This document shows positions 4,222-33,733 of a stretch of DNA of 38,440 nt, in pieces (the first letter of the stretch is position 1; each line of letters begins with the position of its first letter). Made by a program: the position numbers and the translations under genes. The DNA is from Chiloscyllium plagiosum (taxonomy: Eukaryota). The stretch covers positions 11,666,737 through 11,705,176 of the forward strand of contig NC_057719.1 in assembly GCF_004010195.1 (NCBI RefSeq). Reading direction: 5' to 3'. The notes beneath the pieces were generated by a model that had not been told where the DNA came from, ran no database searches, and saw nothing but the letters and a program-made list of their open reading frames with translations.

Positions 4222-4337
4222 ATAACTGCAGATGCTGGAAACCAGATTTTGGATTAGTGGTGCTGGAAGAGCACAGCAGTTCAGGCAGCATCCGAGGAGC
4301 AGGAAAATCGACTTTTCGGGCAAAAGCCCTTCATCAG
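4222..4337 (-). mobile_element. PLE terminal-repeat arm, family A, with hammerhead-like core
   Basis: Same sequence as the arms at 8363-8546, 20762-20978, 32421-32645 and 33640-33733. Confidence 0.75.
4310..4337 (-). ncRNA. Minimal type I hammerhead ribozyme-like motif (family A)
   Basis: Minus strand reads CTGATGA-A-GGGC-TTTT-GCCC-GAAA-AG-TC. Both conserved boxes, stem II and the UH triplet are present. The stem III palindrome (ACGT in sister copies) is mutated. Confidence 0.6.
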
Positions 4338-4344
4338 TGCTGGA

Positions 4345-4940
4345 CATTTGAAACAAACAAAACAGAAATTGCTGGGAAAACTTTAGCAGGTGTGTGAATA
4401 TCTGTGCAGAGAAAACAAGAGCAACGATTTTAACAGATGCAGCCAGACCAGCTGAGTTGCTCCAGCAATTTTTGTTTTTGTTTCATATTCCCCTTAAACG
4501 AGACATTTTCTGTTACCTTACCATAATATACGACAAAAGTTTGGAGATCTGAAGACAATGGAAGGAAAAATACTGCCCAGGAAGCTTTAAGTATTGAAGG
4601 AGCGTCACTGGTCCAGAAAGGTTAACTCCGTTTCTCTCTCCACAGAATGCTGCCAGATCTGATGAGTGTCTCTGACAATTTCTGTTTGAGTTTGACATTC
4701 GCCTCCGTCAAGGCTTGGATCAACTTTTTGAACGGGATACTTTCTGCGATCGTACCATAATAAACGGTAGAAGCTGGGGGATCTGAAGTAACACATGGAG
4801 AAAAGAAAGTGATATAAAACAAAGAACAGCGGATGCTAAAGATCTGAGATAAATTGCTGCAGAAACCCAGCAGGTTGGACAGCATCTATGCAGAGAGAGC
4901 AGAGTTAACTGTTCGACTCCGGTGACCCTCCTTCAGAACA
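4345..4940. mobile_element. Cluster of PLE terminal-repeat arms, family B (hairpin 4345-4490; arms ~4595-4700 + and ~4825-4940 -)
   Basis: Shared motifs GTTAACTC(T/C)GTTTCTCTCTCCACAGATGCTGCCAGA and AAACAGAAATTGCTGG in both orientations. The same motif terminates the GIY-YIG/RT element at 15148-16380. Confidence 0.7.
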
Positions 4941-5039
4941 AAAGAATAATGCCCGGCCATTTAAAACACTTGCCCCAGCGTTGTCTATTTGGCTGAAACT
5001 CAGTGACTGCTCAACCTGAGGCACACAGGGGTTACTCGA

Positions 5040-5200
5040 GTTCACAGGCAGGGGAGGGGAAGGGCGGGGCATTGGAACTGGTAGCCCCGCCCACTAGGCG
5101 TCACGATGGTGCGCTCACGTGACGGAAAGGCGGCCGGCAATTGGTGGAAGCCTGGAACGTGACGTGTTTCCGGTGTTTGTCGGTCGGTCAGTCAGTCAGT
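5040..5200 (+). promoter_or_regulatory. CpG-island promoter of SPTLC2
   Basis: Sharp rise in GC and CpG over ~5030-5700. GC boxes at 5062-5070 and 5084-5092, inverted CCAAT at 5071-5075 and 5140-5144, E-box TCACGTGAC at 5115-5123, CRE-like CGTCA 5099-5103 and TGACGTG 5160-5166, ETS-like TTTCCGG 5167-5173. No TATA box seen. Confidence 0.85.
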
Positions 5201-5492
5201 CCTTCGTTCCTTTGCGAGCTTTCCAGTTGTTGGGGGGTTGTGTGCGCGTTTCTACCGTGAAAGGCCGGGGGTGGGGAATAAAGGTCATCTTAAGGGGAAG
5301 TGCCCCCCACCCCCCCGAGGGGAGAGAAACAGATTAAAGCAACGGTCGAAGGGAAACGCACCTCAGAGGAGCAACGGAGCAGCAAGAAAGCGGACCGAGT
5401 AGGGGCAGCGATTGTAAGCGGACCGTGTAGGGTGAAGGGTGGGAGCCCGCGAACGCCGGAGGCAACCGGAGGGGGGGGGTGTGTTGGCGGCA

Positions 5493-5627
5493 ATGGAGAG
5501 CAAACTGGCGCCCAATGGAGACATCTACAGCACCGTCAACGGCTTCATGGAGAAGGCCCACTCTGAGGGCAAGGTGGCGGCGAGGAAGAACGGCTTCGTG
5601 AAACCCGCTTTCGCCCAGAACGGGAAG
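5493..5627 (+). CDS. SPTLC2: Serine palmitoyltransferase 2, coding exon 1 (45 codons, MESKLAPNGDIYSTVNGF...QNGK)
   Basis: First ATG downstream of the promoter motif cluster, in strong Kozak context (GCA-ATG-G). Ends at the consensus donor AAG|GTAAGG in phase 0, which joins in frame to exon 2. Its size (135 nt) is close to the first coding exon of human SPTLC2 as I recall it. The N-terminal sequence itself is divergent. Confidence 0.85.
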
Positions 5628-5879
5628 GTAAGGCACAGCCCTGGCGGAGGGGGCGGGGGTCTGCCCCAATAACCGGGGTGTAATGTGCGCAGGTGTAATT
5701 GAAGGTAGGAGGGAGATGCTCAAAGTTGGGCATATTGTGGAAAGGATATCATGGGGCTGAGGGTTCAGGTTTGGTACAAACTCGACACAGCCTTGGACTG
5801 TATGGAAATGTCAGATAAAAGTTTAGAAGGACATGGCTAAAGTTGACCTATTAAGTTTGTGTTATACAGGACCCCCATA

Positions 5880-7030
5880 AGATGGAGCAGATTGGTGGCT
5901 TCATCATTTGATTATTGCTGATGTGTTTTCACCCCTCTTCTGCCTTCTACCTGTAATTTTGATCCCTTTACTTATTAAGAACCTCTGTCTTAAATATAGT
6001 CCGTGACTTGGCCCCCGCAGCCCTCTGTGGCAATGATTTTCATGGATTAGCCACCCTCTTGCTGAAGAAAGTCTTCCTTATCAGTTGTAAAGCATCATTT
6101 GGCAGCATCTGTCAAGAGAAATCAGAGTTAACGTTTTGAGCCTGGTGACTCTTCCTCCGAACAGGACCTGAAACATTAACTCCATCTTCTCACAGATGCT
6201 GCCAGACTTCCTATGCTTTTCCAGCAGCTTCTGTTTCTGTTTTAGCATCTGCAGTCCTTTTGGTTTTTTTTTCTAGACCATTGTCCCTTCACTCTGAAGC
6301 TGTGCCGTCAGGTCCTAGTGTCTCCTGTTAGTGGAAACCTATTCTCCGTGCCCACTCTATCCAGGCCTCTAGTATTCTGTAAGTTTCAATGAGATGCCCC
6401 TCATCCTTCTAAATTCCATTGAGTACAGACCCAGAGTCCACAACAACGAGCAGCCGAGCTACAAATCTTCTCCCAAACTTTGAACACTCCTCATATGACA
6501 AGCTCTTCATTCCTGGAATCATTCTTTTAAACCTCTACTGAACCCCTCTGAGGCTAACACATCTCTCTTTAGATATGGGGCCCAAAACTGCTCTTAATAT
6601 TCCAAATGCAACCTGACTGAAGCCTTTTATAACCTCAGCAGTGCATCCTGCTCTTGTATTCTAGCCTTCTCAAAATAAATCCTAACGTTGCACTAGCTTG
6701 CCAACTGCACTTGCATGCTAACCTTGAGAATCCTAAACGAAGATTCTGAAGTCCCTTTTGATCTTTAGATGTACAAAGCTTTTTCCCATTTACAAAATAG
6801 TCTACACCTTTATTCTTCCTACCAAAGCACGTAACGTTACTTCTGCCAATTCTTAGCCTGTCCAAGTCCTTCTGCAGCTTCCCTGCTTCCTCAACACTAC
6901 CTGTCCTTCCACCTTTCTTTGCATCCTGTGCAAATGCCCCTAGTTCCTTCATCCAGACTGTTAATATGACATAGTAGTTTTGGTCCCAACACTGACTCCT
7001 GTGGAACTTCACTAGTCTGGAGCTGCCAAC
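5880..7030 (-). mobile_element. Decayed CR1 LINE 3' portion (RT C-terminal half to 3' UTR) with nested PLE fragments
   Basis: Minus-strand remnants of QGSVLGP, FADDTK-like AQDAKKGG, LQKDLDRL and LGFI.R.LEYKS. Confidence 0.85.
6100..6272. mobile_element. Palindromic PLE-derived insertion, family B, inside the CR1
   Basis: TGGCAGCATCTGT..GAGTTAACGTTT is followed by its inverse AAACATTAACTC..ACAGATGCTGCCA. Ends in AGCATCTGCAGTCC plus a T run. Confidence 0.7.
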
Positions 7031-7339
7031 CTAACTAAAGACTGGTTATCTTTGAAACCACTTTGTAAGTTTTGAGGTATTTTTGCGCAATAAAAAACTT
7101 AACTATAAGAAAACAAAGGTGTGCCATGCGAGAGAAAATTACATGACAGGGATGCCCATTATCAGGTATTTGTCATTGGTTTCCAGTTGATGTCAGAGCT
7201 GTCACTACAAATTTCATATGATGTTTAGTTCACCTGGGAGTTACCAAACAAAATTCTATTGCACTAGATGATATCTTTTCAAATAACTTAAATATGTAAG
7301 GACCACGTGGAAACATAAACAAGTTTGAGGTCACTCAAG

Positions 7340-7675
7340 TCATTTTGTTTATATCAGATGAAAGTGTTATCCGATTTGAATTCTGTTTCCAGTTCAGTCT
7401 GTAGCCCTTGAGGGCAACTTGATGTTTGTCCAGCTATTCTTTTAAAGTCAGTGAGGTTTCTGCCTCTACCATCCTTTTCAGACAGAGTTCCTGATCCCAC
7501 CACACTGAGTGAAAAATGATTCCTCAAATCATCCATCCTTCCACCAATTACTTTAAGTTTTTGTACCCTTATTATTAGTCTCTGCTAGCAGAAGTTGATA
7601 CTTCCTATTCAAGTTTGCTAGGCCCGTTGTGATCTTGTACCACTGAGGTCTTACCTCGAGCCCCTCCTTCCGAAA
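7340..7675 (-). mobile_element. Old CR1 3' fragment
   Basis: Minus strand resembles the DDLRNHFS..RVV..W CR1 C-terminal region. Heavily decayed. Confidence 0.6.
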
Positions 7676-7680
7676 GAAAT

Positions 7681-8340
7681 GTTTGGAGGTGCCAGTGTTG
7701 GACTAAGTGTACAAAGTTTAAGAATCTCACAACACCAGGTTATAGTCAAACAGGTTTATTTGGAAGCACTAGCTTCCGGAGCACTGCTCCTTTATCAGGT
7801 GATTGTCGAGTATAAGATCGTAACGAAAAAACTGAAATTATATATTGTAAAATACCTGAATTGTTTAAGTCTCTCATCTTTTAGCATGTCTGTGTTGAAT
7901 CCCAGAACCTTTTTTAAAATGACATTCTCAAGTGAACTTTAACAATAGGTGCCATGTCGTCTCATAATGCATTGACGGCGTGAGATCTCCTGTGTGAGGC
8001 TGTCTGTGCCCCAATGTTTAGACTGATTCTATTTCTAAAAAAAGGGGTTTACAGAATCTTACGTGGACTTATGCCATTTGAGTAAATAAAATGTAATTCT
8101 GTAAGTACAAATTCACCCCACAAACGTTGTTTGTGTTTTTGGGGGGTGGGGGGGAGCGGCGGGGAGGAGGGAGGTATGAGTGTCTGAGAGTGTACAGGGG
8201 TATAAGTCTGGGAGAGGTTGCATGCTGGTGTGTGTGTATGAGAGCGAGCTCATGTGAGAGTGTAGGGGACTGTAGGAGTGTGTATGTGTAGTGCAATGGG
8301 GTCACCTGAAGGTCCCGGTTAAAGCCAAGTTTTGAACGGT
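7681..8340 (-). mobile_element. PLE 3' region and terminal repeat, family C, with degenerate hammerhead core at 7767-7801
   Basis: Minus strand reads CAC-CTGATAA-A-GGAGC-AGT-GCTCC-GGAA-GC-TA-GTG, followed by AATAAACCTG. Contains a (GT/GA)-rich low-complexity UTR. Confidence 0.65.
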
Positions 8341-8362
8341 GAGGTGAGTCTCTCACTGGAGT

Positions 8363-8546
8363 CGAAGAGTGTGGTGTTGGCAAAGTAAAGTTGGTCAGGC
8401 AGCATCCAAGGAGCAGGAGGGTCGACGTTTCAGGCATAAGCCCCTCATCATTCCTGCTGCTCTGATTTTATCTGACTTGCTGTGCTTTTCCAGCGCCACA
8501 CTCTTTGACTCTGATCTCCAGTATCTGCAGGCCTCACTTTCTCTTA
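8363..8546 (+). mobile_element. Palindromic PLE-derived mini-element, family A, with probable 12-bp TSD
   Basis: Inverted arms. Flanked by TCTCACTGGAGT (8351-8362) and TCTTACTGGAGT (8547-8558). Confidence 0.75.
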
Positions 8547-8633
8547 TCTTACTGGAGTGACAGGAGAACTATTTGCATCGATGTGCATGTATTTGCCTAC
8601 TTTATTACCTAATCTTGCCTCATTGTTATGCGT

Positions 8634-8700
8634 TCTCTCTCTCTCTCTCTCTCACACACACACTCTCTCTCACTCACACACACACACACACACACACACG
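8634..8700. repeat. Compound (TC)n/(CA)n microsatellite
   Basis: Read directly from the sequence. Confidence 0.95.
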
Positions 8701-11700: not shown

Positions 11701-11824
11701 AAGTTATTAAAATAGATCAATTTGGAGCTGTGTGGTTGATATAATCATGCAACTATGATTAGATGTGTTTTGACATCATAGTTATAATTAGACTATTTGA
11801 TTATATTGCTTTTTCTAAATTGCT

Positions 11825-12175
11825 AATTCATTCAGGTGTCAAGGCCAGTATATATTGCCCTTGAGAATGTGATGTTGAACCTTGAAATAACTGAGTGGCT
11901 TTCTTGGACATATCAGAGAGCAATTAATGACTGTGAGACTGAAATTGTGTGGAGATCAGACTGGATAAGGATGGCAAAATTCCTGGCCTGATATTAGTCT
12001 CCGAGGGTGTTTTATGACAATTATTCATGAACACTATTATTGAGACTGGCTTTTTGTTCCAGATATATTTCATTAACTGAATGCAAAATCTGCAGCTTCC
12101 ACGATGAGATTTCAATTTGCTTTCAGAACATGAGACCAGGCCTCTAGATCACTAATCCACTATTGTATCCATGTT
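11825..12175 (-). mobile_element. Old SINE-like repeat
   Basis: Minus strand has a decayed tRNA-like head near 12100-12175 and a GGGCAATATATACTGGC..GAATGAAT tail. The tail resembles the 3' end of the LINE at 23400-24260. Confidence 0.5.
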
Positions 12176-12439: not shown

Positions 12440-13110
12440 AACCTGCCAGACATATTCCCCTCCCCTCCCTTGTCAACATTCCACAGGGACCATTCCGTCT
12501 GGCATACCTTGGTCCGCTCCTCCACTCCCAACATCTCCAGAACCCCACAACTTCCCATGCAATTGCAGAAGGTGCAACACCTGTTTGTTTCCCCCCTCCA
12601 TCCTGACTATCCAAGTCTCCAGACACACTTTCCAGGTGCAAAGATTTACCTGCACTTGATTTCATTTAGTTTGTTGTCGCTCACAATGTTGCCTCATCTA
12701 CGTTGAGACAAAACTACAGACTGACTGCTTTGTGGAAATCCTACATTATGTCTGTAAACATTACCTTGAGCTTCCAATTGCCTGCCACCATGTCCCCATG
12801 CCAACATTTGTCTCAGGCCTGCTGCAGTGCCCCAACAAGGTTTGACGCAAGCTTGAAGAACAGTACATCTTTTGGTTTGGGATCTTGTAGTCTTCTGGAT
12901 TCAACTTCTTAATTAGTAATTTTAGAATAACCATTGGCAATGTCAATGAAGGTGCTGGCGAACCTCAGTTGGTCTGGCAGCATCTTTGGAAAGAAGTTAA
13001 TATTGCAAGTCCAGCCTCCCTCCTTCAGAACTGTTTAGATGGGCTGTTTCATCTTTACAGGTGCTGCCAAGCCAGTTGCATTTCTCCAGTAACATCTGTT
13101 TTTGTTTGAA
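12440..13110 (+). mobile_element. Decayed Penelope-like element (Cys-rich linker and GIY-YIG remnant) followed by inverted family-B arms
   Basis: Frameshifted FPCNCRRCNTC, FQV..FTC and C..C.LIYV-ETK.RL motifs. Hairpin arms at ~12950-13110. Confidence 0.7.
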
Positions 13111-14484
13111 CTTGTGGACACTTGGTTCGTATCCTTGCTGCAATGTGGTACTAAATTGCTAACATTGTTTCACATTCTGGCTATCTAGGAACCTGTACCT
13201 ATGGATCAACTTTTCAGTTTTCTTTCTCTGCTGGAACAGTATTGAGTACTTTTATAGTGGATCAAATAATCTTATCTTGGAAGCAAAACTGTTGAGACTC
13301 CTAACACTTTTAAAGTGCCACCTGTTCCTGTTGTGAATCAATCAGATTCTTTGTCTAACATCAGGTCTTTGATAAATCCTAGATTCCTTCTGTTTATAGG
13401 AATGAGCACTCTATTGGATCATTAGCATTTGTCTCCCATCAATTTACCTCTATCTTTACTCCATAACTCATCGGTTCTTTCCCATAACAACACTTGATCA
13501 CTATCTTGGAAATTTCCGTTAAATACCGTTAAATACCAACATCCAGCAGCCAACACAATACCCTAGATGATGTCTGAGCAGCATACTGCATCACTGACAC
13601 TTTCTTTTGAATTCCAAATCCCTTGAGATATTGACCAACATTCATGTTTAATATTAATTTTGTACCTGTGCAATTGATTTGTTTGAGGTTATCATTAAGG
13701 CCCTGGTTCCTCAGTCTTGACCTGCACATGAGACATGGTGACCCTCCGGTTAAACCACCACTGGTCATTTTTCTGGGAAAGCAGCTCTGTGGTACTGATT
13801 GGCAATGGCAATTTTACCCTTGCGTTTCATGTGGGTATCCCTTCTACCTCTACCCTTCCTAGTCTCTCGTATTAAATTGAAATCTAATTTATCCTTTTTC
13901 TAAATTCAAAATGCCTTACACATCTCTATATTGAACTCCATTAACTTAGTCTTTCTGTCCCTTTAACAGCTGTTCAGTGTGGTGAAAACTTAAGCTGTAT
14001 ACAGCAGCCTTGGCTTATGTGCCACAGATTCCTGAGAATTTTGGAGCAGTCCCTCATGATCAGTGAGAACTTTTCAACTTTGTTTAGCCTTAGCTTAGTT
14101 TCACTCTCAGTATTTTCTTTGCCAAGAATTGCCAGCTTCTCCATTTCTTACTGTATGCTTCTCCCTTAACTTTTTGTTCTTTGTTGCAACGTTCATGTAC
14201 ATGTGTCAATGTCTACATGATTGGTTTCCTTGCTGATCTTTCTTCTGTACCTATGTCCTTTTCAACACCCCTATTAACTTGTCTTTCTGCTGAAGAGCTA
14301 GGTAGATCCCCTGAATCCCATATCTATTGTAAGTAAAGAAGTTGGGTTCATAGACATATTGCTCACTTCCACTCTCCTTTCTGATTCTGAAACCTTGTTC
14401 AAAGTCTTGATCTTCTGACTCTGATCTCTTAATTCTCTTTACCCATGTCCCCACAGACAAGCACAAACATTGATAGCAGTGATA

Positions 14485-14690
14485 AAAACCAAATGCTGGA
14501 GAAATGTAGCAGGTTTGCTGGAGATAAATGTTTTGAATCCGAAATGATTTTTCTTCACGCTTGTTTGGGTGTCTTTGTTCCAAAGAGGATTTGGATTGGA
14601 TTCTGTCCAATCTGCTCTCTCTCCACAGATATTGTGGGACCTGCTAAGTTTTACCTGTACTTTGTTTTATTTTAGCATCCACAGTACCAA
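14485..14690. mobile_element. Old palindromic PLE-derived element, family B-like
   Basis: AAATGCTGGAGAAATGTAGCAGGT is inverted against CTCTCCACAGAT..GACCTGCTAAGTTTT. Confidence 0.55.
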
Positions 14691-14994: not shown

Positions 14995-15145
14995 ATGTGC
15001 TTCTGAGTTTAAAGGTGATGAGTTGAAGTCCCACTCCAAAGATTTGGGCTTTAGTGTAGGTTGACTCAGTCCAGTGCTGAGGGAATGCAGCATTCAGTTA
15101 AGATGAGCAAAAATCTCATCTTTGTTCTGCAATAAAAGATCCAGT
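14995..15145 (+). mobile_element. Deu-domain-like SINE fragment
   Basis: B-box-like GTTGAAGTCCCACTCCA and AGGTTGACTC..AGTGCTGAGGGAATGCAGCA. Related fragments at ~17120-17220 (-), ~18500-18715 (-) and ~19845-19990 (+). Confidence 0.5.
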
Positions 15146-15147
15146 GA

Positions 15148-16380
15148 CAAAAACAGTGCTTGAAATACGCAGCAGGTCTGGCAGCATCTATGTAAAGTGA
15201 AAAAGTTAATCTTTTGAGTTCAGTCACACTTTGTCAGAACTGAAAGCAGCTGAAAAACTGCAATTATGATGAAGATGGGGTAGAAAAGTGAATAGATGGA
15301 GACGAATCAGGGAGAGATGGAAGGGAAGCAAACTTAGAGATTGCTGATAGCAAGCTGGTGAATAAGTGGATGCTGAATAGGTGAAGGCAGGAATTTCAAA
15401 TGATTGAAAGTGGGCTGCTTGTCCTGGGAGCAACCCATACAGAATCCTCCATACAGGGATGAGCATGGAGGGAGATGTTCGCACTGAAATTGGTAAACTC
15501 TTGAGGACTGTAAGTTATTAGGCTGAAGATCTGTTGTTCTCCAGTTTGCATTGAGCTTTAGAGCACTGCAGCAGGTCTGACACACCTGCATAGAGCATGG
15601 TGTGGAATGTAGCTGGAAACTCGGTCACTTTTAACAGAGCATATGTTTGGCAAAGTGATTGCCCAGTCTCTGTTTTGTCTCCCCAGTGTAGAGACCATGT
15701 TGTGAGTAGTGAAAACAAGTAGATTGAATCTCTGCTTCATCTGAAAGGTGTGCCTGGAGCCTTTGATAGTGAGGAAGGAGGAGGTAAGCAGTCAAGTGTT
15801 GCATCTCCTGCAGGCGCATGGGAAAGTGCCACGAGGGTATGAGGAGCTATTGAGAATGGAGGAGCAATGGACCAGCGTGTCCCTGAGGAAACTGTCCCTG
15901 GGGAATGTTGGCAAGTGAGGAAATGTCTGGTGGTGCTATCCCACAGAAGGTGGTGGAAATGACAGCTCGTGATGTTTCAACTCTGGAGACTGCTGAGTGG
16001 AAAGTGAAAACAAGTGGTCCCTATCCTTGATGTGAAAGAAAACAGGTAAGGTGCAGGAAATGGGCTAGATGTGGCTGAGGATCCTGTTAACCACGTAACA
16101 GGGAACATTAGGTTGAGGAAAAAGGTGGATGTCTAAGACCCTCATGGAGGGTGGTGACAGGAATGAGAACCTGAGAAAGATGCAGTGGAGTCCCTACAGG
16201 AGGCAGGGTGTGAGGATGCATGGTCGAAGTAACTGTAGGAATCAGTGGGCTTGTAATGAATATCAGTAGCCAGTCTACTCTCAGAAGTGGAAACAAAACT
16301 CCAAGAAAGGGAAGAGTCAGATGGGCCAAGTGAAGCTGAGGGAAATATGGAAATTTGATGCAAATTGATTTTCTAATTCT
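15148..16380 (-). mobile_element. Decayed Penelope-like retroelement (RT thumb, GIY-YIG, terminal repeat family B)
   Basis: Minus-strand ORF pieces LPFL.., RLATDIHYKPTDSYSYFDHASSHPASCRDS and GLYTGETKQRLGNHFAKH. Family-B arm at 15148-15240. Confidence 0.85.
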
Positions 16381-17609
16381 TGACTAGTTTGAAGCACAAA
16401 GTTTTGAGGGAGGTACCTTTGGTAGTACTGGAATATGGAATGTTCTGTGTACCTCTGAGACTGGCTCCAAGCCCCATAGCAATATCTTTGACATGAAGAA
16501 AGTGGGAGGATTAAAAGATGCAGTGACATTGTTGGAGGAGCAGAGGAATGTGTACTGAGTTGTCCTAAGTGCTGGCAGCTATTAGTTCTATTTTACAGCA
16601 TTCCAAAAAAAACCTGGTCAGGACAAAGAGTAAGTCATTGTGGTGATGAGTTTTGCACTCTTCCAGTAGTGTGAAAACATTGTACAAATGTATGTCCTTT
16701 CCTAAGTGCAAGAGTTCTGCCTGGTCATTTTTAGGCTGATGCTGCTTTTGCAACAAGAGAACTGTACGGTGTGTGCAGAGTTGGTTTGCACCTATAAAAG
16801 GGAGTGTTCTTAGATAATGTCATTAAACCTTATCTGCAAATTGGAACTGCTATTTCAAGCCTCACTTTAGTATGATTGTTAAACCCTTGAGAGAATTTGA
16901 ATTTGTCACAGCTTCAAGCTATTCCAAAGCATTTTGCTTGCACCAAATTACTTTTGAAATAGCCAAATATGTAACCAAATAGAGAATTTAATTTATGTTC
17001 ACATCCCAGATTCAGCAAATTCTCGTTTTGACCATGCAAGGATCTTGTGACTTTTAGAGCCATCTACGAAAATAAATAAAATTTTGGTTTGTTGACAGAA
17101 ATTGGTTCAATATGTCAAAGACTGTAACTGTGCAGCAGTTCATGCAGCACTGCTGTGTGATGGATTGTGCTTAAATGCTGTTGCTTGTGAAACTACAGCG
17201 TTTGCTGCCATCTGAATCAAGTAACCTTTTCTCTGTCATAGTAAATAAATTGTGCTGAAATTAATTTTTTATTGTTTGCAATATTTTGCTTTCATCTACT
17301 TTTTCACATGCAAAGATCCAGTTTATTGAATAGTGGCCAAGTTATATAAATTGAACTGGCTTTATTCAATTTCAGTCAGTACTTGGGCCTGTGTATGTGG
17401 TAATGGGTTAGAAATGAAAATTGTTCCATATGTATTTGCTTTTGTATAGTACTGTTTCTAACCTGCATCTGCAATTTATAGACCACAATGAATGTTGTCC
17501 CTGTCATTCCAGGCACTTGATGCATGTTGTTTCTCCCAGTAGAAAGAAATTCTAAATCTTGGTGTCCTTAATGAGCACCTTTCCTGTGGACACACTTAGT
17601 GAGTTTTGA

Positions 17610-18160
17610 CGTCTCGGGAATGACTGCCAGATTACTCAGCACACTAAAACAGTGGCTAATGAACGTGCAAGACCCTATACAGACAATGAGCAAAACTAAT
17701 GTCATTTATGAAATACTGTGCAAGGACTGCAACAAACACTACATTGGACAAACAGGTAGAAAACTAGCCACCAGAATACATGAACACCAACTAGCCACAA
17801 AAAGACATGATCCTCTCTCACTAGTATCCTCACATATGGATGAGGAAGGCCACCACTTCGACTGGGACAACACATCCATCCTAGGACAAGCCAAACAAAG
17901 ACATGTGCGAGAATTCCTAGGGGCATGGCACTCCAACCGGAACAAACCCATTGAGTTAGACCCCATCTACCACCCCCTGAGAAAAGGAACAGGAAGTGAT
18001 TTTGGCACAGGAAATGACATCACCAACCCAAAGAAACACAAATAGATAACAGGAATTTTAGTATTGGTTTGCATGAGGCCCACTGAAGATGTTACCTAAT
18101 AGGGTAACGAAATGCCTGAAAATGTACGTTTCAGCTCAGCGAGCAAACCTACATCCAACA
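17610..18160 (+). mobile_element. Penelope-like element 3' part, family D: GIY-YIG endonuclease (open to 18045) and 3' region with hammerhead motif
   Basis: KTNVIYEILCKDCNKHYIGQTGRKLATRIHEH...H....HHFDWDNTSIL is a PLE GIY-YIG with the CxxC insert. It is 5'-truncated and has no RT. Confidence 0.92.
18080..18119 (+). ncRNA. Minimal hammerhead ribozyme-like motif (family D), partly decayed
   Basis: CA-CTGAAGA-T-GTTACC-TAATAG-GGTAAC-GAAA-TG-CC-TG. Perfect 6-bp stem II, located just after the GIY-YIG stop codon. The UH position is mutated. Confidence 0.6.
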
Positions 18161-19740: not shown

Positions 19741-20761
19741 TAGTTTGCAAAGAGCTCAGGTAGTATTTGGAGTGTTAAATTTATGTTCAGAGTAAATGTT
19801 GAAATATATTAAGGTATGATCAGATAAATTTCTGACCCCACTTTATTAGCTGTGGGTCATTAGCAGCACTCTTGCCTCGAACTCAAAGGCTGCAAGTTTC
19901 AGCCCTATCCAGAGACTTGGCTCCATTATTAGATGTACTCTTGTTTGTATGAGGCATTAGACCAAGACCTCACCTGCACGTTGTCTTTCAATAATGAAGT
20001 TTTTCGTGTTTATCTGTCATTTCTTTTGCATTGCAATAGTGGATATTTTGGATGTAACTCTAAGATTGTTTGGATGTCCAATGGCTTTTTATAAATGCAA
20101 ACTATATGAAAATTGAAGATAATCAGTACCTGCAGTCACTTTTTCCATTAACTTGAATGTGCATACTTTTAAGGGAATTAGATAGACCTGATATGTTGTA
20201 AACAGACCCTTTCAGATGCTCAGTACCAACTCTCTCAGGAGAATGTAATTAAAATGTTACACTAGCAATTACAATTAGAAATGTTGATGGAAATTTTTAA
20301 TGTGCAAAAACAAGGACAGGACAGCTTATGTGACTTTATACCCGGCATGTGATTATGTCTCCATGTCTTTGTTCAGATATCCCTGTGCTATTGTTTCTGA
20401 AGACTCTTCTGAACTACTTTTCCTTGACTGCTTTCATTTTATGTTTTAACATGAACTATTCTTTGTGCACAATTTGATTGTGTCTCATGCTTTCTGTCAC
20501 ATTTTTTGTGACTTCTGATTACTTAATTTGCTCTCATTAGCACCTTATCTGTGTAACAATATTATCTGTGAATGACAGACCCACAAAGGTACTTGTTAAT
20601 CATTGTTATGCCACCTTGAGACAGAATGATAGGTAAAATGCAAACAGTTGTCAAAACTTGTATTACCTGGAATTTGGTGGGGTGGGGGTGGTTTGGGAAG
20701 TCCATTTAAACTCTACATCTGGATTTACTTTCTTCCATCATTGGCTACCTCTATAAACCTG

Positions 20762-20978
20762 AAAATGTGTTGCTGGAAAAACGCAGCAGGTCAGGCAGCA
20801 TCCAAGGAACAGGAGAATCGACGTTTCGGGCATAAGCCCTTCTTCACAATACCATAGGGATATCTGAAGAAGGGTTTATGCCCAAAACGTCGATTTTCCT
20901 GTTCCTTGGATGCTGCCTGACCTGCGCTTTTCCAGCACACTTTCAGCTCTGATTTCCAGCATCTGCAGCCCTCACTTT
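20762..20978 (+). mobile_element. Palindromic PLE-derived mini-element, family A, with perfect 16-bp TSD
   Basis: TACCTCTATAAACCTG at 20746-20761 and 20979-20994. Inverted arms of ~80 bp around an 18-nt spacer (20847-20864), each arm carrying a hammerhead-like core. Confidence 0.9.
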
Positions 20979-21230
20979 TACCTCTATAAACCTGGCAAGA
21001 ATGTAAAATTCCCGCTTGCAGTAAGTGGCAAGTAATGCAGATGCATTTAAGCAGAGGCCAGATGTGTACATGAGAGAATAGAAGCAAATGTTGTGATGGT
21101 GGATGACAGCTGCCTTGAGCAAAAATACACTTACAGATCTGATGGGCTGAATGACCTGTTTGTTCTATGTAACTGTTCAATTTTTAAAATGAGTAAAACT
21201 CAATATGGTACTGCAGTATTTTTAACAACT

Positions 21231-21745: not shown

Positions 21746-21784
21746 GGAGAGATGAAGGAGGAGCTCGGTAGAATTGACCGGGCG

Positions 21785-21872
21785 AGGGAAGGGCTTGTGC
21801 CTGAAACATCAACTCACCACCTTGGATGCTGCCTGATCTGCTTAGCTTTTCCAGTGCCATACTTTTCGACAG
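21785..21872 (+). mobile_element. PLE family A single-arm fragment
   Basis: GAAGGGCTTGTGCCTGAAACATC..CCTTGGATGCTGCCTGA..TTTTCCAG. Confidence 0.7.
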
Positions 21873-21889: not shown

Positions 21890-23355
21890 GAAAAACAGTG
21901 GAACAGCAATGGCAGGAGTTTCTGGGAGTGATTCAGGAGACTGTGGAGATTCATCCCAAGGGGGAAAAAGGAGCATAGTACAGGGATGATGAGGCAACCG
22001 TGGATGACTAGGGAAATCAGAGATAGTATAATAGCAGAAGAAAGCATTATAATGTGGTGAAGGAAAGTGGGAAACCAGAGGATTGGGAAGCTTACAAAGA
22101 GAGGGCAACAAAACAAAAGATGGAAGATTAAATATGAACTGGCCAGTAATATAAAGGGGGAAAAAAAGTTTCTTTAGATGTATAAAGGGCAAAAGAAGCA
22201 AAAGTGGATATTGGGCTGCTGAAAAATGATGCTAGAGATAGTAGTGGGGAACAAGAAAATGGCTGAGGAACTGAATTACTTTGTCAGTTTTCATGGGGCA
22301 AGACACTAGTAATATCACACAAATTCGAGGGGGGTGCAGAACTGAGTTTGGTGGCCATCACCCAAGGAGAAGGTGCTAGAAACACTGAATGGTCTGATGG
22401 TCTGTAAGTCACCTGGCGCAGATGGACTACACCCCAGAGTTCGAAGGGAGATAGCTAAAAAGATAATGGAGGCATAAGTGGTGATCTTTCAGGAATTGCT
22501 AGAATCAGGGATGGTCCCAGAGGACTGAAAAATCACTTACATGACACCCCTGTTTAAAAAGGGAGTAAGGCAAAAGAATGATTAGCCTAACCTTGATTGT
22601 GGATAAGATCCTGGAATCCATTGTGAAGGATACGATTTCTGAACACTGAAGTGTGTGGTAAAATAGGGCAAAGTCAGCATGGTTTCATTGAGGGGCGGTC
22701 ATGCTTGACAAATTTGTTGGAATTCTTTTAAGGAAGTAACGAGCCGGTTGGACCAAGGCGAGCCAATGGATGTTATCTACCTGGACTCCAAGAAGGCCTT
22801 TGACAAGGTGCCGCACAGGAGGTTACTGAGTAAGATAAGGGTCCATGGTGTCAGAGGCAAGGTGCTAGCATGGATTGAAGCTTGGCTGCCTGGCAGAAAG
22901 CAGAGAGTGGGGATAAAAGGGCCTTTCTCAAGATGGCACCCGGTGACAAGTGGTATTCCGCAAGGGTCAGTGTTGGGACCGCAACTTTTCACTTTATACA
23001 TTATTGATCTAGATGAAGGAACCATGGGCATTCTGGCGAAGTTTGCAGATAACACAAAGATAGGTAGAGGAACAGGTAGCATTGAGGAGTTGGGGAGGCT
23101 GCAGAGGATTTGGACAGGTTAGGAGAGTGTGAGAAAGTGAGGTCAAGAATAGAGGCATAGACTATTGTCTAAATAGGGAGAAAATTCAGAAGTCTGAAGT
23201 GTAAAGAGACTTGGGAGTTCTAGTCCAGGATCCTGGACAAGGTAAACCTACAGGTTAATTCAGTAGTTAGGAAGGCAACTGCAATGTTGGCATTTATTTT
23301 TGAGGGATAGAAAGAAGGGATGTATTTCAGAGGCTCTATAAGGCTCTGGTCATAC
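21890..23355 (+). mobile_element. CR1 LINE ORF2 reverse-transcriptase remnant
   Basis: DVIYLD.KKAFDKVPHRRLL, SGIPQGSVLGPQLF and KFADNTKIG motifs. Several frameshifts and stops. Confidence 0.93.
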
Positions 23356-24472: not shown

Positions 24473-25305
24473 ATAGAGTCATAGAGATGTATGGCACGGA
24501 AGCAAACCCTTCAGTCCAATTCCTCCATGCTGACCAGATATCTTAAGTTAGTCCAATTTGCCAGCACTTGGCCCACATCCCGTTAAACCCTTCTTATTCA
24601 TATACCCATCCAGATGCCTTTTAAATGTTGTAATTGTACCAGCCTCCATCACTTCCTCTGACAGCTCATTCAATACACACACCTCTGTAGAAACAATTGC
24701 TCTTTTCAAAATCATTTCCCTCTCACCTTAAATCTATGCCTTCTAGTTCTGGACTTCCCTACCCCAGGGAAATTACCTTGTCTATTTACCTTATCCATGC
24801 CCCTTGTGATTTTATAAACCTCTATAAGCTCACCCCTTAGCCTCTGATGCTCCAGGGGAAATAGCCCTCGTCTTTCTCTAGCTGAATCTTCCAACCCTAG
24901 CAACATTTTTGTAAATATTTTCTGAACCCTTTCAAGTATCACAACATCCTTCCTATAGCAAGGAAACCAGAATTGCAGACAATATTGCAAAAGTGGCTTA
25001 ACCAATGTCCTGTACAGCAGCAACATGACCTGAACTGAAATACTCAGTGCTCTGACCAATAAAGGAAAGCATACTAAATGCCGCCTTCACTATCCTATTT
25101 ACCTGAGAATTCAAGGAACTATGAACCCGCACTCCAAAGGTCTCTGTTCAGCCAGACTCCCCAGGACCTTACCATTAACTGTATAAATCCTGCCCTGCTT
25201 TGCCTTTCCAGAATGCTGCACTTCACATTTATCTAAATTAAACTCCATCTGCCACACCTCAGCCCATTAGCCCATCTGATCAAGATCCCATTGTACTCTG
25301 TATCT
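24473..25305 (-). mobile_element. CR1 LINE 3' portion
   Basis: Minus ORF LLLYRTLVKPLLQYCLQFWFPCYRKDVVILERVQK...RLRGELIEVYKI...SRTRRHRFKVRG. Confidence 0.92.
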
Positions 25306-25590: not shown

Positions 25591-26494
25591 TTGCCCTGTT
25601 CTGGCATTCTTTGAACTAGCTGTTGCTATTCTTGTAAAGTTGAATGTTCGAATGCATGGAAGTAATTTCTAAAGATTATCTGTATAGCAGTGTTCTTTGC
25701 TTTCAATAATCTGGAACACATGAGACCGTTGATTATTCCATTTCCACAACGGTAATCTTCCTTTTTGCATTCTACATCTGTTCAATTCTGTGTTTTTTAT
25801 TGGATCTTATTAACCTCCAGAATTGGGTGGAAGAGCCATGGACTAGTAATGGCAGAGAACAGAAGTGGGGAAAGAAGTAAACTAGAGCAAACCTGTTTCC
25901 GGCTGTATACAGCAGGAATTCAAAAGCCACTGCTCGAGTAGGTTTGATGGTGCTTTATAAATCTTGATTCGATACTGATCTGTACTACTTGTAGTGGCTT
26001 TGTCTTGCAAAGTGTTTACTTTGTTGCAGGAACATCCTCAGAATTGCTAGCGTTCTGGACCCACCCAGTACTGTACATTCTTTTGGCTGAAGCAGAGAAC
26101 TAGTAAATACTGCAGCTAGCTGGAATGGAAGGGAAATGAATAATTACAAATGCTGACTTTTTAATTAAAGCAAAAGCTCGAGTCCTTCTGATTTCACAGC
26201 GGGTGGGATTAAAATCTTGAAGTTTATGAACTGTATTCAGTTTGCCAGGCTTTGACAATTAAACTAACCTAATTATGTTAAGGATCAAATTAAATTTGGC
26301 TCTGTTCCCTACCTTGTGATGTGGTCACAGTGATAAACACTTTACAGGCACTGAAGTTTGCAGTAATATTCTCATGTCAAATGCAGATTTAGGTGCAAGA
26401 TGTTTAGTTAGCAAGTATTATAAATATGAAGTCCACTTAGCAAACATGCAAAGTGAGTTTGTATTCGGTAGCTACCAGATCCCTTAGACTGAGA

Positions 26495-28200: not shown

Positions 28201-28299
28201 TAGATAAGATGCCTTCCAAGCATTTTAGTTCAATAGCATACTTTAAGTAATAATTTGAAAATGTGCAACAAAATCAGCTTTATTGTGCGAATGTAGTTG

Positions 28300-28430
28300 G
28301 TCATAGTGATACAGCATGGAAATAGACCTTTGGTCCAACTAGTCCATGTTCCCAAACTAAACTAGTCCTGCTTCTCTGCATTTGGCCCATATCCCTCCAA
28401 GCTTTTCCTATCCATGTACTTAGCCAAATT
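28300..28430 (-). mobile_element. Short CR1 3'-end insertion
   Basis: TCATAG..ACAGCATGGAAATAGACCTTTGGTCCAAC..GGCCCATATCCCTC. Confidence 0.8.
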
Positions 28431-29379
28431 TGTGTTAAACATTTAACTTGTGCATGCATTCACCATTTGTTTCATAAGTATTGGTGATCTTAAAGCTTTG
28501 GTCAATACAACTTTTCATCAACATCTTTTGTTGTACTGTTGCTACCTGGCCACTTTGCATACAGGGGCAGGTACCCATCTCATGAGTTGGAACAGGATGC
28601 ATCTCCATGGGAGTCGAAGTCGACTGATCTGATGTCAATTTCCTCCATTATTATGCTGACATCTCCTGAACTGTAATCTTTACAAAATGGTACTTGGTAC
28701 CATAGACTGTAATGCAACCAGATTTTTGTACATTGTATGTAGTTAATGGAAATGTTTGTTAGTGCGATAAAATGCTTGATAAGGGTCAGTAGCGCTAAAT
28801 TTGTGGGCTTTCAGTTTTTAACTTGGAAGCATACTGTTTTAAAGAATGTTGCTGTCCAATTACAGTCAGATTTGCTTTGGGATTCTTTTTCCCTGCTAGA
28901 TGCTTGGCAAAGTAACACCCCACTAACAGACCATCACATTATCAGCTAGAATTGCAGTTGAGTTTGCTGTTAATGCTAGTATGGATTATTACATTAAACT
29001 CTGAAGTTGTGATGGGCAAAATGAACAGTCATAGTAATGGACATACATACAATCTCCTATACTTTAATTTAGTTTTCAACATGTTAATCCAGTGACCTGA
29101 CATTGGACTGAATTTTTATTGATGGTTGCAAGTTTTACACCACCTTTTTGTTTCTCTCCAATTTGATATTTGACTAAGTTTTGAGCTGATTCAATTTTTC
29201 ACACTGGCATAGTTGTAAGACTTACAGGTGTCATGTTAGTATTGTATTTCATGTTCATGCACATTTTCCATAACAATGATGTAACATTGTACACTCGATG
29301 ATTAACAAGAAACTGCACATCATCAGTGGTGACACTGCATGCCAATATATTGCTTCACTTCATGTCCTCCACAAAATTG

Positions 29380-29717
29380 GGGCAGCGCGGTGGCTTATTG
29401 GTTAGCACTGCTGCCTCAGCACCAGTGACCTGGATTCAATTCCCACCTCAGGCGACTGTCTGTGTGGAGTTTGTGTCTGCATGGGATCCCTCTGGGTGCT
29501 CCGGTTTCCTCCCACAATCCAAGGATGTAAGGGTTAGGTGACTTGGCCATGCTAAATTGCCCACAGTGTTTAGCGATAAATAGGCTAGGTGCGTGAGTCA
29601 GGGGTAAATGTAGAATAATAGGGTAGGGGAACGGGTCTAGGTGGGATACTGTTCGGAGGGTTGGTGTGGACTTGTTGGGCCAAAGGGCCTGTTTCCATAC
29701 TGTAGGGATTCTATGAT
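29380..29717 (+). mobile_element. Near full-length V-SINE with 7-bp TSD
   Basis: tRNA-like head (GGTGGCTTATTGGTTAGCAC, GGATTCAATTCC), V-domain with an internal deletion and an ATTCTATGA tail. AAAATTG at 29373-29379 and 29718-29724. Confidence 0.9.
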
Positions 29718-31877
29718 AAAATTGCAGCTAATACCTATGTATAATGCATTGCAGACAAAGGGTTAAATGCCAGGCAATAAGATGAAGAATTTTTTCACAA
29801 GTAATGAAGCAGGGTGTGGCATCTAGCTCATATTATTGCATAAACTTGTCTTTGTAATCCAGAATGTGATTTTCCATTCACAGCACACTTTATGTACCCA
29901 AACCACCTAACAGTTTCAAGTATCAGTGAACTTTTTATGAAACTTTTTCCTTGTCATCCAGCTTGTTCAGTTTTTTTTCTCTTCCTGTATACGTGTAGTT
30001 CAGAGGTTATCAAAGGAAGATAAGGCCATATTCCAAAGCAGTTCACAACAAAGCAGTGTTGTTGAAATTTAATAGTCATAATTCATGTGCAGAAAAGCCC
30101 TAGAACTGTTGTGATAATAAACCTGTCACCACTCAGTAGGGTAGTACGCTAGAAATGAAACCCGATTATCACCAGAGACATCATGTAAAAAGATTTTGTC
30201 AAATTCTACAAAGTCGCCAATTTGACTGACTGATTCATATTTTTCCTTCTTTCTCCCCCTCCCTCCCTCTGAGCCCGCTCCCCCCCCCTCCCCCACCTCA
30301 CTGTGCCAGGTACTTCACACGGTTTAATTGTCATTTGCAATAAATAACTCATTTATCCTGTAATCGAGTCCCTGTCAGAAAATGGCTAGTTGACAATATT
30401 TCATCTGTGTGAACTTACATCCAGCAGAATAATTTTAAAAATTGTAAATCCTTCCCTATGGTATTCATTAAGATAATTGCAGATGCAATGGATGCATTTT
30501 TCGGTTGCTGTGAACTTAATTTTGATGAGTATTTGAATTCACTGAAGACTACTGGTACTTGTAAATTTACATCATTCTAAAATTGGTTTAAGTTGGCCTT
30601 TGCTCACTGTGGTTTGATGGCCTGACTTCAAGGCTTACTGAAAGTGTTGGATGCTGAAGAGTCACTCTTGTATTATGTAAAACCTGTGGCTCTTTATATT
30701 TATTTTTTAGTCCACACTTTTAAATCCTAAATTTAAAAACCAGTATTTCAAAGGATGTGTTTTGAACAGCTAATAACCTGAAACTTGGGGCAGCAAATAT
30801 TTGTACAGCTGTTTCAACAATCAGTAATTGAAGTGGTTGAAGATGAATTGGAGCCAAGTTGTTCTGTACAGAGATGCAGCTAAGTAGCAATAATTGATTG
30901 GTCTGTGGATCACCATTTCTTGACACCTTTTGCCTGTCAGGTTACTGTACAGCCATGCCTGGGATCGGGGTACAGAGAAGTTACTCTGTTCTCTGTAGTC
31001 AAAACTTATCTCAAACCAGAATAATCAGGTAATCCTTCCTTCAATAGTTGACTTTTTAATTGATAAATCACAAGCATTTTACAAGTGACCCAGTCACTTA
31101 CAAATCAGTGGAAGCATTTGGAAAAGGGAAATCAAGAAGAAACTTTAAGATCAGCAAGATCCAACTCATCAGAACTCTAGAATAAAGATTACTGAACTCT
31201 TTCCAGATTTTCTCCCATCCAAGTAACCTCTCTGTCTGTACCTCGTGTGTAAGATGCAGTTATAAAGGGTTGATGAGAGTTTTAGTTCATCATGTTATGC
31301 CAATGGTTTATAACTGGTTGCCTGTAATAAACAGAAATTCTTAAATACAGAAACCTGGTCTGTGCTTTTTGCCAAGCTGGACATGAATAATCACATTGTG
31401 GACTTTTGTATAATTTAAGAAAAATCTTTAACTTCTACTCTCTGGGGAAAAATGGGTTTGATCTTGTGTGCTCCCCAGTGAGTCATGTCAGTTAATACCT
31501 GTCATTTTTACCACCAAACCCCCTCCGACCCCACAAACCACTCAACGTCAACATATATTGGCATTTGGTAATGTGTACAAAACTGTACAGTTTGCCAAAA
31601 CAAGTCAATTCAATTTTTATTGAACTTCAATGATGCATTAGCAAATTTGCATTTGAATCTTATGGTTGAATTCTACTCAATTTCTAGATCACTTGCTACT
31701 CTTAACAAAATTGCAAGAAGTCCAGTGCAGTTGGAATAACTTGTGCGATCAGGCACAACCCCCAACACTTGACTTCATATTGAGTGGAAGTCTTAGTATT
31801 CTGTCAACCTTTACCATTGTAAGTTCCATGTCACCAAATTGTAGCATATTTATGCTCTGACTTTTCTTTTGTCCCAG

Positions 31878-32072
31878 ATTCTTCATGTTGCACAAAATGG
31901 TGGACTGTACAAGAAGCCATTTAATCAGTCTTTTGAGGAAACACCTATGCTTGTTGCTGTGTTGACGTATATGGGTTATGGAATCCTTACACTTTTTGGA
32001 TATCTCAGGGATTTTCTTCGGGAGTGGAAGATTGAAAAATGTCATCATGCTACTGAACGTGAAGAGCAAAAG
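31878..32072 (+). CDS. SPTLC2: Serine palmitoyltransferase 2, coding exon 2 (65 codons)
   Basis: [65 protein letters not shown] closely matches vertebrate SPTLC2 ([11 protein letters not shown] favours SPTLC2 over SPTLC3). Branch-like CTGAC, polypyrimidine tract and CAG acceptor; AAG|GTGAGG donor; 195 nt, phase 0-0. Confidence 0.96.
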
Positions 32073-32420
32073 GTGAGGGCAGTTATTTGCAAATGTTTCT
32101 CTTCCTTTGTGTTAAAATAATGGCAGTAGATGAGTTTAAAAATATCTCGTGTTGCTGAGTTACATACTCCAGACTAGGCCACTACCTTCAGTGAGTAAAT
32201 CAGACTAATTGGATGAATTTAACAACTTTTTAATGTTACGATGGTCCCTCTTATACTTCAAGTATAACAGTATTTAGATGAAAAATTAAAATAAACAAGG
32301 AAATACTTTGTCATACAACGCATTTTTATGTGCCACACCTTTTATATAGTGGTGTTACTGTACCAATACAGATGCTTGGGTGATGGAATCTCTTATTTCC
32401 CAAGCTGGTCCTGGCCTAGG

Positions 32421-32645
32421 CAAAAGTGAGGACTGCAGATGCTGGAGATTAGAGTCAAGATTACAAGTGGTGTTGGAAAAGCACAACAGGTCAGGCAGCA
32501 TCCAAGGAGCAGGAAAATCAATATTTTGGGCAGGAGCCCATCATCAGGAATGAGGATGAAGGGCTCCTGCCCAAAACGTTGATTTTCCTGCTCCTCGGAT
32601 GCTGCCTGATCTGCGCTTTTTGCAGCGCCACTCTAATCTTGACTA
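32421..32645 (-). mobile_element. Palindromic PLE-derived mini-element, family A, with imperfect 14-15 bp TSD
   Basis: TGGTCCTGGCCTAGG (32406-32420) and TGGTCCTGACTAGG (32646-32659). Inverted arms of ~90 bp meet at decayed hammerhead cores. Confidence 0.85.
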
Positions 32646-32739
32646 TGGTCCTGACTAGGGTTTGTTGCATTGTTTTATTGCTCCAGTGTCCTCAACGGCA
32701 TGGTAAGCAATGTTGATGGCACTGCTGCCTTGAAAATAA

Positions 32740-33300
32740 GAGGAGACTATTCAACGTTTGCAAGTTTTTGGTCTCTCAAGCATGCTCCTCCATGCATTAC
32801 AAACTAGCTTATAATCAACTCCCATCTTAAATTATCCTCCGCTATAACATTCTGGATAAGCACTTTCCAAGATTAACAAACAACTGCACGAAGGAGGTTT
32901 TCCTTATCACTCACCTAAATGGTGAGCCCCTTATCCTAAGACATTGTCTCATGTTCTGAAGTCTCTAGAAAATAACAACCTAGTATTTTCTCTACTAAGC
33001 TACCCGTAGAATTTCAAATGTTTCATTGAGATCACCGCTCTCATTCTTCTAAATCCCAGAGAGGATAGATCCAATTTAATCAACCTTTCATCCTGAAAAC
33101 CACTTGAATGAACAATCTCCGTACCATCTTCAAGGTAAGTACTTCCTCCTTCGATATGGCAAACATTATTGCTCAGAGCTCCAGGTGTGATTTCATGCAG
33201 TTGTACAAAATTGGTTACTGTTGTACTCCAAACATTTACATTAAAGACCAATATGCCATTTGCCTTTCTACTTGTGTGTTGCATTCCTACCTAGACTTGT
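32740..33300 (-). mobile_element. Old CR1 3' portion
   Basis: Minus ORF remnants KANGIL.F and ERLIKLDLSSLGFRRMR. Confidence 0.7.
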
Positions 33301-33639
33301 AATGTATCACTTGATAAAATACTCTGTCTCTTTGGACAGGTCCTGATCTAGATTGAAAGTAGCTGAGGCCACAACAGTGATCCTTGCACTGTTCCACCTT
33401 ACTTGGAAAAATGTACTGTTAATTTCTACTCTGTACATTGTCCATTTAGCCAATCCTTCAAAAGATGTAATGCACTGAATTGTCTCCCTGCCTCTGAAAC
33501 AGAAATTCTAGATTTAATTCCACTTTAGGACTTGATGGTCAAAAAAGATGGTTCATAATAAGGCCAAACATGTGGACTATCCACTTGTAAATCTTTCTAA
33601 TACACTAATGACAAATGGTAAGAACCAGCAAGATTTTTG

Positions 33640-33733
33640 ATCAAGTTTAGAGTGGTGCTGGAAAAGCACAGCAGGTCTGGCAGCATCAGAGGAGCAGGAA
33701 AATCGGTCTTTCGGGCAAAAGCCCTTCAGGAAT
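33640..33733 (-). mobile_element. PLE family A single arm
   Basis: GTGGTGCTGGAAAAGCACAGCAGGTCTGGCAGCATC..TTTCGGGCAAAAGCCCTTCAGGAAT. Confidence 0.75.

Follow-up and report, generated by a model that had tools for sequence, protein, structure and literature searches.

Minimal hammerhead ribozymes (min-HHRs) of type I have been described in the Penelope-like elements (PLEs) of metazoans, where the core carries an extra base between positions 9 and 10.1, a G10.1-C11.1 pair and a palindromic 15.2-16.2 step (Cervera and de la Pena, 2014; PMC4209133). According to the same survey, several families with different stems can be found in one genome, mostly as solo motifs with some copies on the opposite strand, and low cleavage is obtained only as dimers. 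For a PLE of the green anole, cleavage was reported to be assisted by protein, insertion to proceed without cleavage and no read ends to fall at the cut (Frangieh et al., 2024; PMC11167929), and the role of PLE hammerheads is still debated (PMC8557442; PMC11167929). Besides, head-to-head inverted copies and an optional tail of 30-40 bases are described PLE traits (PMC8557442; PMC3846280), and a C-x2-5-C-x2-C linker ahead of the endonuclease characterises the Neptune/Nematis PLEs (PMC8557442). The present analysis deals with a stretch of 38,440 nucleotides from the shark Chiloscyllium plagiosum (contig NC_057719.1, positions 11,666,737 to 11,705,176; hereafter the window; 41% G+C), in which four repeat families, A to D, had been proposed in an initial annotation to share such a motif.

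The layout, the extra base and a stem III made of a four-base palindrome are all known from the 2014 survey (PMC4209133), and the window adds new members of this known kind in a shark. The four motifs are very probably decayed min-HHRs residing in 5'-truncated stubs of PLE terminal repeats (pLTRs), linked to open reading frames (ORFs) in the case of families B and D and likely also in that of A and C, the copies themselves being likely inert. Nearly all sites likely lie in intron 1 of the SPTLC2 gene.

Hammerhead copies and their link to Penelope-like elements

Hammerhead-like motifs are present at the four places given in the initial annotation. Upon scanning the window for the layout consisting of the first box, one base, stem II, GAAA, two bases and UH, one site was free of box changes, eight sites carried at most one change and 13 at most two, against means of 0.02, 0.38 (maximum 2) and 4.9 (maximum 11), respectively, in 60 block-wise dinucleotide shuffles of the window. 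Six of the eight sites with at most one change belong to family A or D, the B and C copies appearing only at two changes. The other two, at 16075-16110(+), antisense inside a broken PLE ORF, and at 34133(+), in a stretch resembling a long interspersed element (LINE), lie outside all four families and are probably chance matches. The single unpaired base between A9 and G10.1, previously claimed to follow CUGANGA in every family, is needed in 7/7 sites checked for it.

By BLAST and alignment, eight A copies, eight B copies with hammerhead remains, one C copy and one D copy were recognised, that is more than had been listed initially. The boxes of 17 copies were checked, and the exclusion of three of these 17 rows for wrong register left 14 copies in clear register. 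No copy is fully intact, the sole one with all boxes (4310-4337, minus strand) having neither palindrome nor stem I, which bears out the earlier caution that every copy deviates and that activity is doubtful. The palindromic stem III proposed for all families is retained at 15.2-16.2 in 8/14 clear-register copies, CG being the majority of family A, but neither in the D copy (TG) nor in the A copy at 4310 (AG). Similarly, the core GAAACGTC is found intact at 20820-20847(-) and 8424-8451(-), as annotated, except for C3, which is changed in each; and while the first box, stem II (seven pairs) and GAAA of family D stand, the copy reads GAAA-TG-CC and thus comes without palindrome and without the U16.1 of the UH triplet. 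Helix I has three to four pairs in C as well as in four of the B copies, two pairs in D, and zero to three per copy in family A, where the first pair of stem II (G10.1-C11.1) is G-C or G-U in 8/8 copies. Folding as monomer yields no hammerhead and three of six copies fold no better than shuffles; when three copies were cofolded, the palindrome paired between molecules only for the B copy at 6159.

The majority lines of A and B (eight window copies each) retain CTGANGA, the extra base, GAAA and TH; self-cleavage of the ancestral consensus, supposed for each family in the initial annotation, is putative. Reads and contigs were aligned to 6050-8560 at 80% likeness and so include other genomic copies. 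At position 13 of family C, A accounts for 99.6% and 99.4% of the depth in contig sets X1 and X10, which represent two species, and for 1584 of 1675 RNA reads, restoring GAAA; loose ends behind 8450 restore C3 of family A (482 and 487 contigs, 393 reads). The window copy of C also bears A at position 8 (7793), its C3-G8 pair being changed. For family D, the zebra-shark protein P0001 can be aligned over endonuclease and hammerhead alike (202 residues, 63%), and its E-T-S stands opposite E-M-P of the window, consistent with an intact GAAA-CG-TC. As for the changes themselves, G12A occurs at a CpG in 6/14 clear-register copies and in four copies CA or TA has replaced the CG of 15.2-16.2; taken together, the core changes look like neutral CpG decay. 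Compensation was considered for the TA palindromes of two copies and rejected, since double CpG decay yields the same outcome.

The traits of the motifs match those reported in PMC4209133 and B and D follow remnants of PLE ORFs, so that the assignment to PLE-type minimal type I hammerhead motifs, made from the sequence in the initial annotation, is supported. Family D lies about 55 bases 3' of a GIY-YIG endonuclease remnant (PF01541), the best relatives of which (17644-18000) are found in Stegostoma, Chiloscyllium and Hemiscyllium. Regarding family B, the broken ORF leading into the hammerhead at 15237 shows reverse transcriptase (RT) similarity to P0053 (16591-16187; tblastn, E 4e-5) and a cysteine linker region matching the whale-shark protein P0135 (15920-15744; tblastn, E 1.6e-14), and an 8-base direct repeat at 15088 and 16596 surrounds this ORF and its B unit. 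This linker is present in the B-linked remnants and absent from the D-like proteins, and the clade call rests on it. Pfam returned nothing on the four short B-linked pieces, and PF26215, put forward for P0135 with an atlas score of 0.92-0.93, was set aside as a weak assignment of low recognition value. No full-length shark PLE ORF was found among the 120 of 162 longer relatives listed. The 5' truncation, adjacent inverted copy and optional tail typical of endonuclease-bearing PLEs were all encountered, and the family A pair at 20757-20985 is enclosed by a perfect 16-base target-site duplication. The stems differ between the families and each of them pairs, giving four lineages of which two are related: A and B cross-match by BLAST and have a downstream box in common, so that the four families are distinct by their stems but not independent.

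At 18089-18160(+), the extra base of family D supplies the T of an ATG from which a frame runs across the core, an arrangement shared with the anole element, and 27 of the 120 listed longer relatives, nearly all near-identical, begin with an M...VET peptide compatible with a frame over the hammerhead core. As an ORF start, this ATG is retained as a lead only, the strict pattern being found in 2/120 N-termini vs. 13/3165 background windows; the likeness of the frame to the start of the full-length ORF P0018 is weak (9/19, E 0.39).

Family C and its polyadenylation site

Among the 17 copies checked, family C alone has an AATAAA in the 120 bases that follow the predicted cut. Within the poly(A) single-cell run X21, the alignment is left at 7740 by 575 reads and at 7743 by 341, each continuing as poly-T on the opposite strand; the first-mate depth is 1417 at 7748 and 123 at 7722. 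No reads of run X22 aligned. Poly(A) is found 12-15 bases past the hexamer, i.e. about 30 bases past the predicted cut, and the flank beyond is not A-rich (five A in 25 bases). A hexamer AATAAA followed 12-15 bases on by poly(A) and then by a GU-rich stretch is the usual geometry of polyadenylation. As poly(A) is added past the cut site, cleavage would remove the tail. Most family C RNAs in X21 are uncut, with a first-mate depth of 1372 at 7776, upstream of the cut, vs. 1417 downstream; this depth does not measure cleavage, since a 3' piece of some 28 bases and its tail would probably drop out of such a library.

At the DNA level, the contig depth reaches about 14,000-53,000 over 7814-8149 (X1) vs. 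6-21 in the unique flank, and near 7718 the alignment breaks off into differing flanks in 654 contigs of X1 and 736 of X10; the window copy continues to about 7680. Many insertions hence reach some 30-60 bases beyond the poly(A) site, so that the insertion template was likely read-through rather than polyadenylated RNA, in line with the anole work (PMC11167929). Upstream of the family C body, a few codons (GFNRDL; 8300-8345, minus strand) may resemble the end of a PLE endonuclease; the additional letters of one contig at 8308 point to a deletion in the window copy. A protein search with the frame spanning family C gave six candidates, none of which scored. Searched with exact patterns (20 and 22 bases) from C and A, the metagenome contigs gave no match, nor did the viral contigs with that of C, and three matches to an exact pattern in bacterial genomes were discarded as chance (about one expected; no match beyond 26 bases).

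By eye, seven of 44 rows of supplementary Fig. S3 of PMC4209133 have AAUAAA right after the hammerhead, so the coupling may extend beyond sharks. The literature searched yielded no statement that connects the hammerhead of a PLE with a poly(A) signal; subscription papers as well as Repbase or Dfam entries may hold one. That family C would constitute a mass-dispersed ribozyme and poly(A) cassette at shark gene ends, i.e. a tail-removal switch like that of Clec2 operating upon dimerisation or upon meeting a PLE protein, is a long shot; if true, copies inserted in sense would provide the poly(A) sites of these genes, and intact ones would cut the mRNA nine bases ahead of AAUAAA. In a separate observation, 271 X21 reads (loose ends behind 7800) show a pyrimidine tract and CAG four bases ahead of the first box, which recalls the intron end at helix I of the Drosophila virilis Penelope (PMC4209133).

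Proposed origin and competing explanations

Within the parent elements, the palindromic stem III would be completed either by two hammerheads lying on the same strand of a tandem transcript or by the protein of the element itself, which would allow slow self-cleavage after UH (PMC4209133; PMC11167929). New copies would arise by an endonuclease nick and reverse transcription halting near the front of the hammerhead, often with the addition of an inverted copy, a mode of copying to which the head-to-head pairs and the 16-base target duplication point. Decay of the two core CpGs (C11.1-G12 and 15.2-16.2) would have followed insertion. In the reads of one run, the terminal repeat of family C is in addition seen to carry a working polyadenylation cassette made up of AATAAA, poly(A) site and GU-rich stretch.

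A number of observations weigh against this scheme. The covariation announced for the stems is not supported: stem II of family A is paired in all cells of the alignment, with three one-sided and no two-sided changes (0/5 pairs), and in family B 2/8 stem pairs have two-sided changes, a number attained in 206 of 500 shuffles, so that compensatory changes are not above shuffles within the eight A and eight B window copies, a small and decayed sample. The covariance-model search suggested in the initial annotation gave six Rfam matches in the window at E up to 10, none of them to a hammerhead model, as would be expected for a motif without helix III. The majority stem I of family A is weak (two pairs, a mismatch and one pair), and neither G8 of C nor the core of B figures among the 40 of 232 differences listed, which leaves these consensus letters without genome-wide support. 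With 135 proteins as queries, tblastn detected no PLE reading frame near the A or C copies, and no pile-up of RNA ends was seen at any predicted cut site. As regards polyadenylation, the evidence comes from one sample, corresponding to some 2% of a single run; of 4571 reads, no more than 4 match this locus (antisense to SPTLC2) at 99% or above; the 271 X21 reads mentioned above bear one and the same upstream sequence, unlike that of the window, so a few loci may dominate; and poly-T ends in the DNA runs, that is A-tailed genomic copies, are possible among 3330 loose-end rows beyond those listed.

Chance resemblance in repeat-rich DNA is scarcely credible as an explanation. At two box changes, the null mean of 4.9 leaves the B and C copies, taken alone, without significance in the scan, and half of the six folds are no better than shuffles, but eight sites vs. 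0.38 stand at one change, the motif recurs at a constant place within every repeat family, majorities and reads bring the boxes back, and the site follows PLE ORFs; for A and D, the scan excess, the majority and the ORF position rule chance out. More room has to be left for families A and C being short non-autonomous elements headed by a hammerhead, similar to short interspersed elements (SINEs) or retrozymes and borrowing PLE proteins, rather than PLE ends. Both families come without ORF link, A copies begin no more than about 11 bases from the first box (the agreement of loose ends drops to 0.39 behind 8450), and a preprint treats such units as non-autonomous PLE derivatives (10.64898/2026.07.22.740005); since A has its downstream box in common with the ORF-linked B, C possesses a repeated upstream body of about 540 bases and the window holds no head-to-tail tandem of these units, this alternative is unlikely while keeping a modest chance of being right.

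An appreciable, albeit minor, chance is granted to the motif having been kept as a protein-binding, start-codon or 3'-end signal, with self-cleavage playing a minor part. Mutants of the anole hammerhead are still able to insert, its cleavage depends on protein and the cut shows no read ends (PMC11167929); the ATG of family D and the plentiful uncut polyadenylated RNA of family C go in the same direction. Yet the catalytic boxes are all kept across unrelated stems and two PLE clades, the likeness of the D frame to a full-length ORF start is weak, short 3' cleavage products would be lost from the library and most reads stem from decayed copies. Lastly, it is highly improbable that one or more intronic copies act as an active or exapted ribozyme regulating SPTLC2. 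The C insertion and its flank are found in a second species and are hence old, and the copy at 4337 retains all boxes, but this copy and that of C are antisense to SPTLC2, every sense copy has changed boxes, the paired ones are buried in hairpins, the changes are of the CpG-decay type and no same-strand neighbour near enough for a stable dimer is evident.

Genomic context and comparison with described systems

The coordinates of the features are collected in Table 1. The family C and 8451 A insertions (6866-7736 and 8096-8411) are at the same place in the second species (X10 records 14 and 16) and therefore predate that split. For the head-to-head A pairs, read in host sense, long hairpins with paired boxes are predicted (-142 and -146 kcal/mol; z -21 and -17, respectively), so that these pairs would not act as hammerheads. 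These hairpins, of about 90 near-perfect pairs in the SPTLC2 pre-mRNA (20760-20950 and 32440-32650), are candidates for A-to-I editing. At 4885-4910(-) and in other B copies, the cut site overlaps TTAAC, a pyrimidine tract and CAG-ATG, with the look of a branch point and 3' splice site; no supporting joint is listed. The 42-base tail of a fifth PLE family at 6445-6486 is skipped exactly by other LINE copies and by eye resembles the end of P0003. Further LINE frame remnants and short repeats lie at 488-1962, 22709-23122, 24712-25086 and 36534-37860, two of them with RVT_1/endonuclease Pfam matches, and an exact 41-base tandem duplication is located within a LINE remnant at 965-1046.

Table 1. 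Coordinates in the window of hammerhead copies, associated PLE remnants, polyadenylation features and host exons
Feature	Position	Strand	Remarks
Family A min-HHR	4310..4337	-	all boxes intact; 15.2-16.2 AG, not palindromic; no stem I pair
Family B min-HHR, decayed	4594..4623	+	C3 and A9 changed; stem II broken; register from alignment
Family B min-HHR	4907..4936	-	A9G, A15.1C; stem I GTT/AAC
Likely first coding exon, SPTLC2	5493..5628 (right end approximate)	+	open frame; suggested by orientation and exon 2
Family B min-HHR	6130..6159	-	U4G, G12A; 5-pair stem II; ACGT retained
Inverted family B arm	6163..6260	+	starts within stem II; head-to-head partner of 6159
Fifth PLE family, solo 42-base 3' tail	6445..6486	+	no hammerhead; in LINE remnant; joints 6444-6487 in X1 and X10; loose ends 6438
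Family C optional 3' tail, about 30 bases	7680..7710	-	tail concept from PMC8557442
Family C poly(A) addition sites	7740..7743	-	then GU-rich stretch 7722-7739
AATAAA of family C	7755..7760	-	starts 9 bases 3' of predicted cut
Family C min-HHR	7767..7801 (core 7770-7798)	-	stem I CAC/GTG; G8A, A13G; AGCT palindrome
Family C predicted cut	between 7770 and 7769	-	
Family C upstream body, repeated	7802..8345	-	likely 3' untranslated part
Family A min-HHR	8424..8451	-	C3A; inverted partner arm 8451-8547(+) without hammerhead
Neptune-type PLE ORF remnant, broken	12452..12915	+	C-x4-C-x2-C linker, endonuclease-like stretch; P0135, E 4e-8
Family B min-HHR	12999..13028	-	A9G, A13C
Family B min-HHR, very decayed	14527..14558	-	in head-to-head pair 14480-14680
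Family B min-HHR	15208..15237	-	G8A, G12A; directly 3' of PLE ORF remnant
Broken Neptune-type PLE ORF	15400..16591	-	RT end, Cys linker, endonuclease-like stretch; leads into B hammerhead 15237
GIY-YIG endonuclease remnant, Penelope/Poseidon-like PLE	17608..18027	+	PF01541, E 7.6e-5
Family D min-HHR	18083..18116	+	U16.1C; 15.2-16.2 TG; A9-extra-G10.1 spells ATG (18089-18091)
Head-to-head family A pair	20746..20994 (also given 20757-20985)		hammerheads 20820-20847(-), 20864-20891(+)
Family A min-HHR	21783..21810	+	first box destroyed
SPTLC2 coding exon	31866..32072	+	serine palmitoyltransferase 2, E 1e-36
Head-to-head family A pair	32406..32653		hammerheads 32520-32547(-), 32553-32580(+); 8-base flanking direct repeat
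Family A min-HHR	33705..33729	-	3-base deletion in first box; U16.1C

The closest described motifs are the min-HHRs of PMC4209133, with which those of the window share CUGANGA, the unpaired base, G10.1-C11.1, GAAA, the palindromic 15.2-16.2, NUH and a short helix I. In Fig. S3 of that work, a turtle row combines an AGCU palindrome with AAUAAA just downstream, like family C, and helices I of two pairs occur, like in family D and the family A majority. A difference is that no cartilaginous fish is named in the passages of PMC4209133 covered here or in its supplement file 2, and the 3' flank is labelled there as AU-rich while the AATAAA of family C is here seen in use as a poly(A) signal. The green anole Poseidon element PAc (PMC11167929) resembles family D by a hammerhead placed after GIY-YIG, an ORF start where stem II begins, and an optional tail of 30-40 bases; PAc is intact and active in vitro, whereas family D is a broken stub whose ATG is only a lead. 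The B-linked remnants share their linker with the Neptune/Nematis PLEs (PMC8557442), but their ORFs are broken and the clade is deduced from the linker, not from an RT tree. Non-LTR (long terminal repeat) retrozymes of animals, reported in one chondrichthyan, are likewise non-coding units with a type I hammerhead derived from PLE pLTRs (PMC7229834; preprint 10.64898/2026.07.22.740005). They form head-to-tail tandems with a hammerhead per unit, whereas the window copies are solo or head-to-head; no head-to-tail units of the retrozyme type were found in the window, where same-strand A copies are 1.2-12.4 kb apart.

On its own, the recurrence of the 2014 result in a shark genome carries small weight. 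The one addition beyond known work is the way in which hammerhead and poly(A) site are arranged in family C, where cleavage is putative. Hammerhead, poly(A) site and DNA copy ends follow each other in a fixed order within about 90 bases, which offers a handle on whether the cut, the polyadenylated or the read-through RNA is the one translated and the one copied. Regarding this arrangement, the hammerhead of the mammalian Clec2 3' untranslated region (PMC6765202) also cuts upstream of the poly(A) signal, so that cleavage removes the signal; it is split, active as a monomer and kept by the host, whereas family C is a dispersed repeat with a core of the dimer type. Transposon-donated poly(A) sites (PMC2553571; PMC11699766) are similar in that the repeat supplies both AATAAA and the poly(A) site in use, the donors described there being SINEs and LINEs of mammals, whereas the family C reads may represent either host mRNAs or element RNAs.

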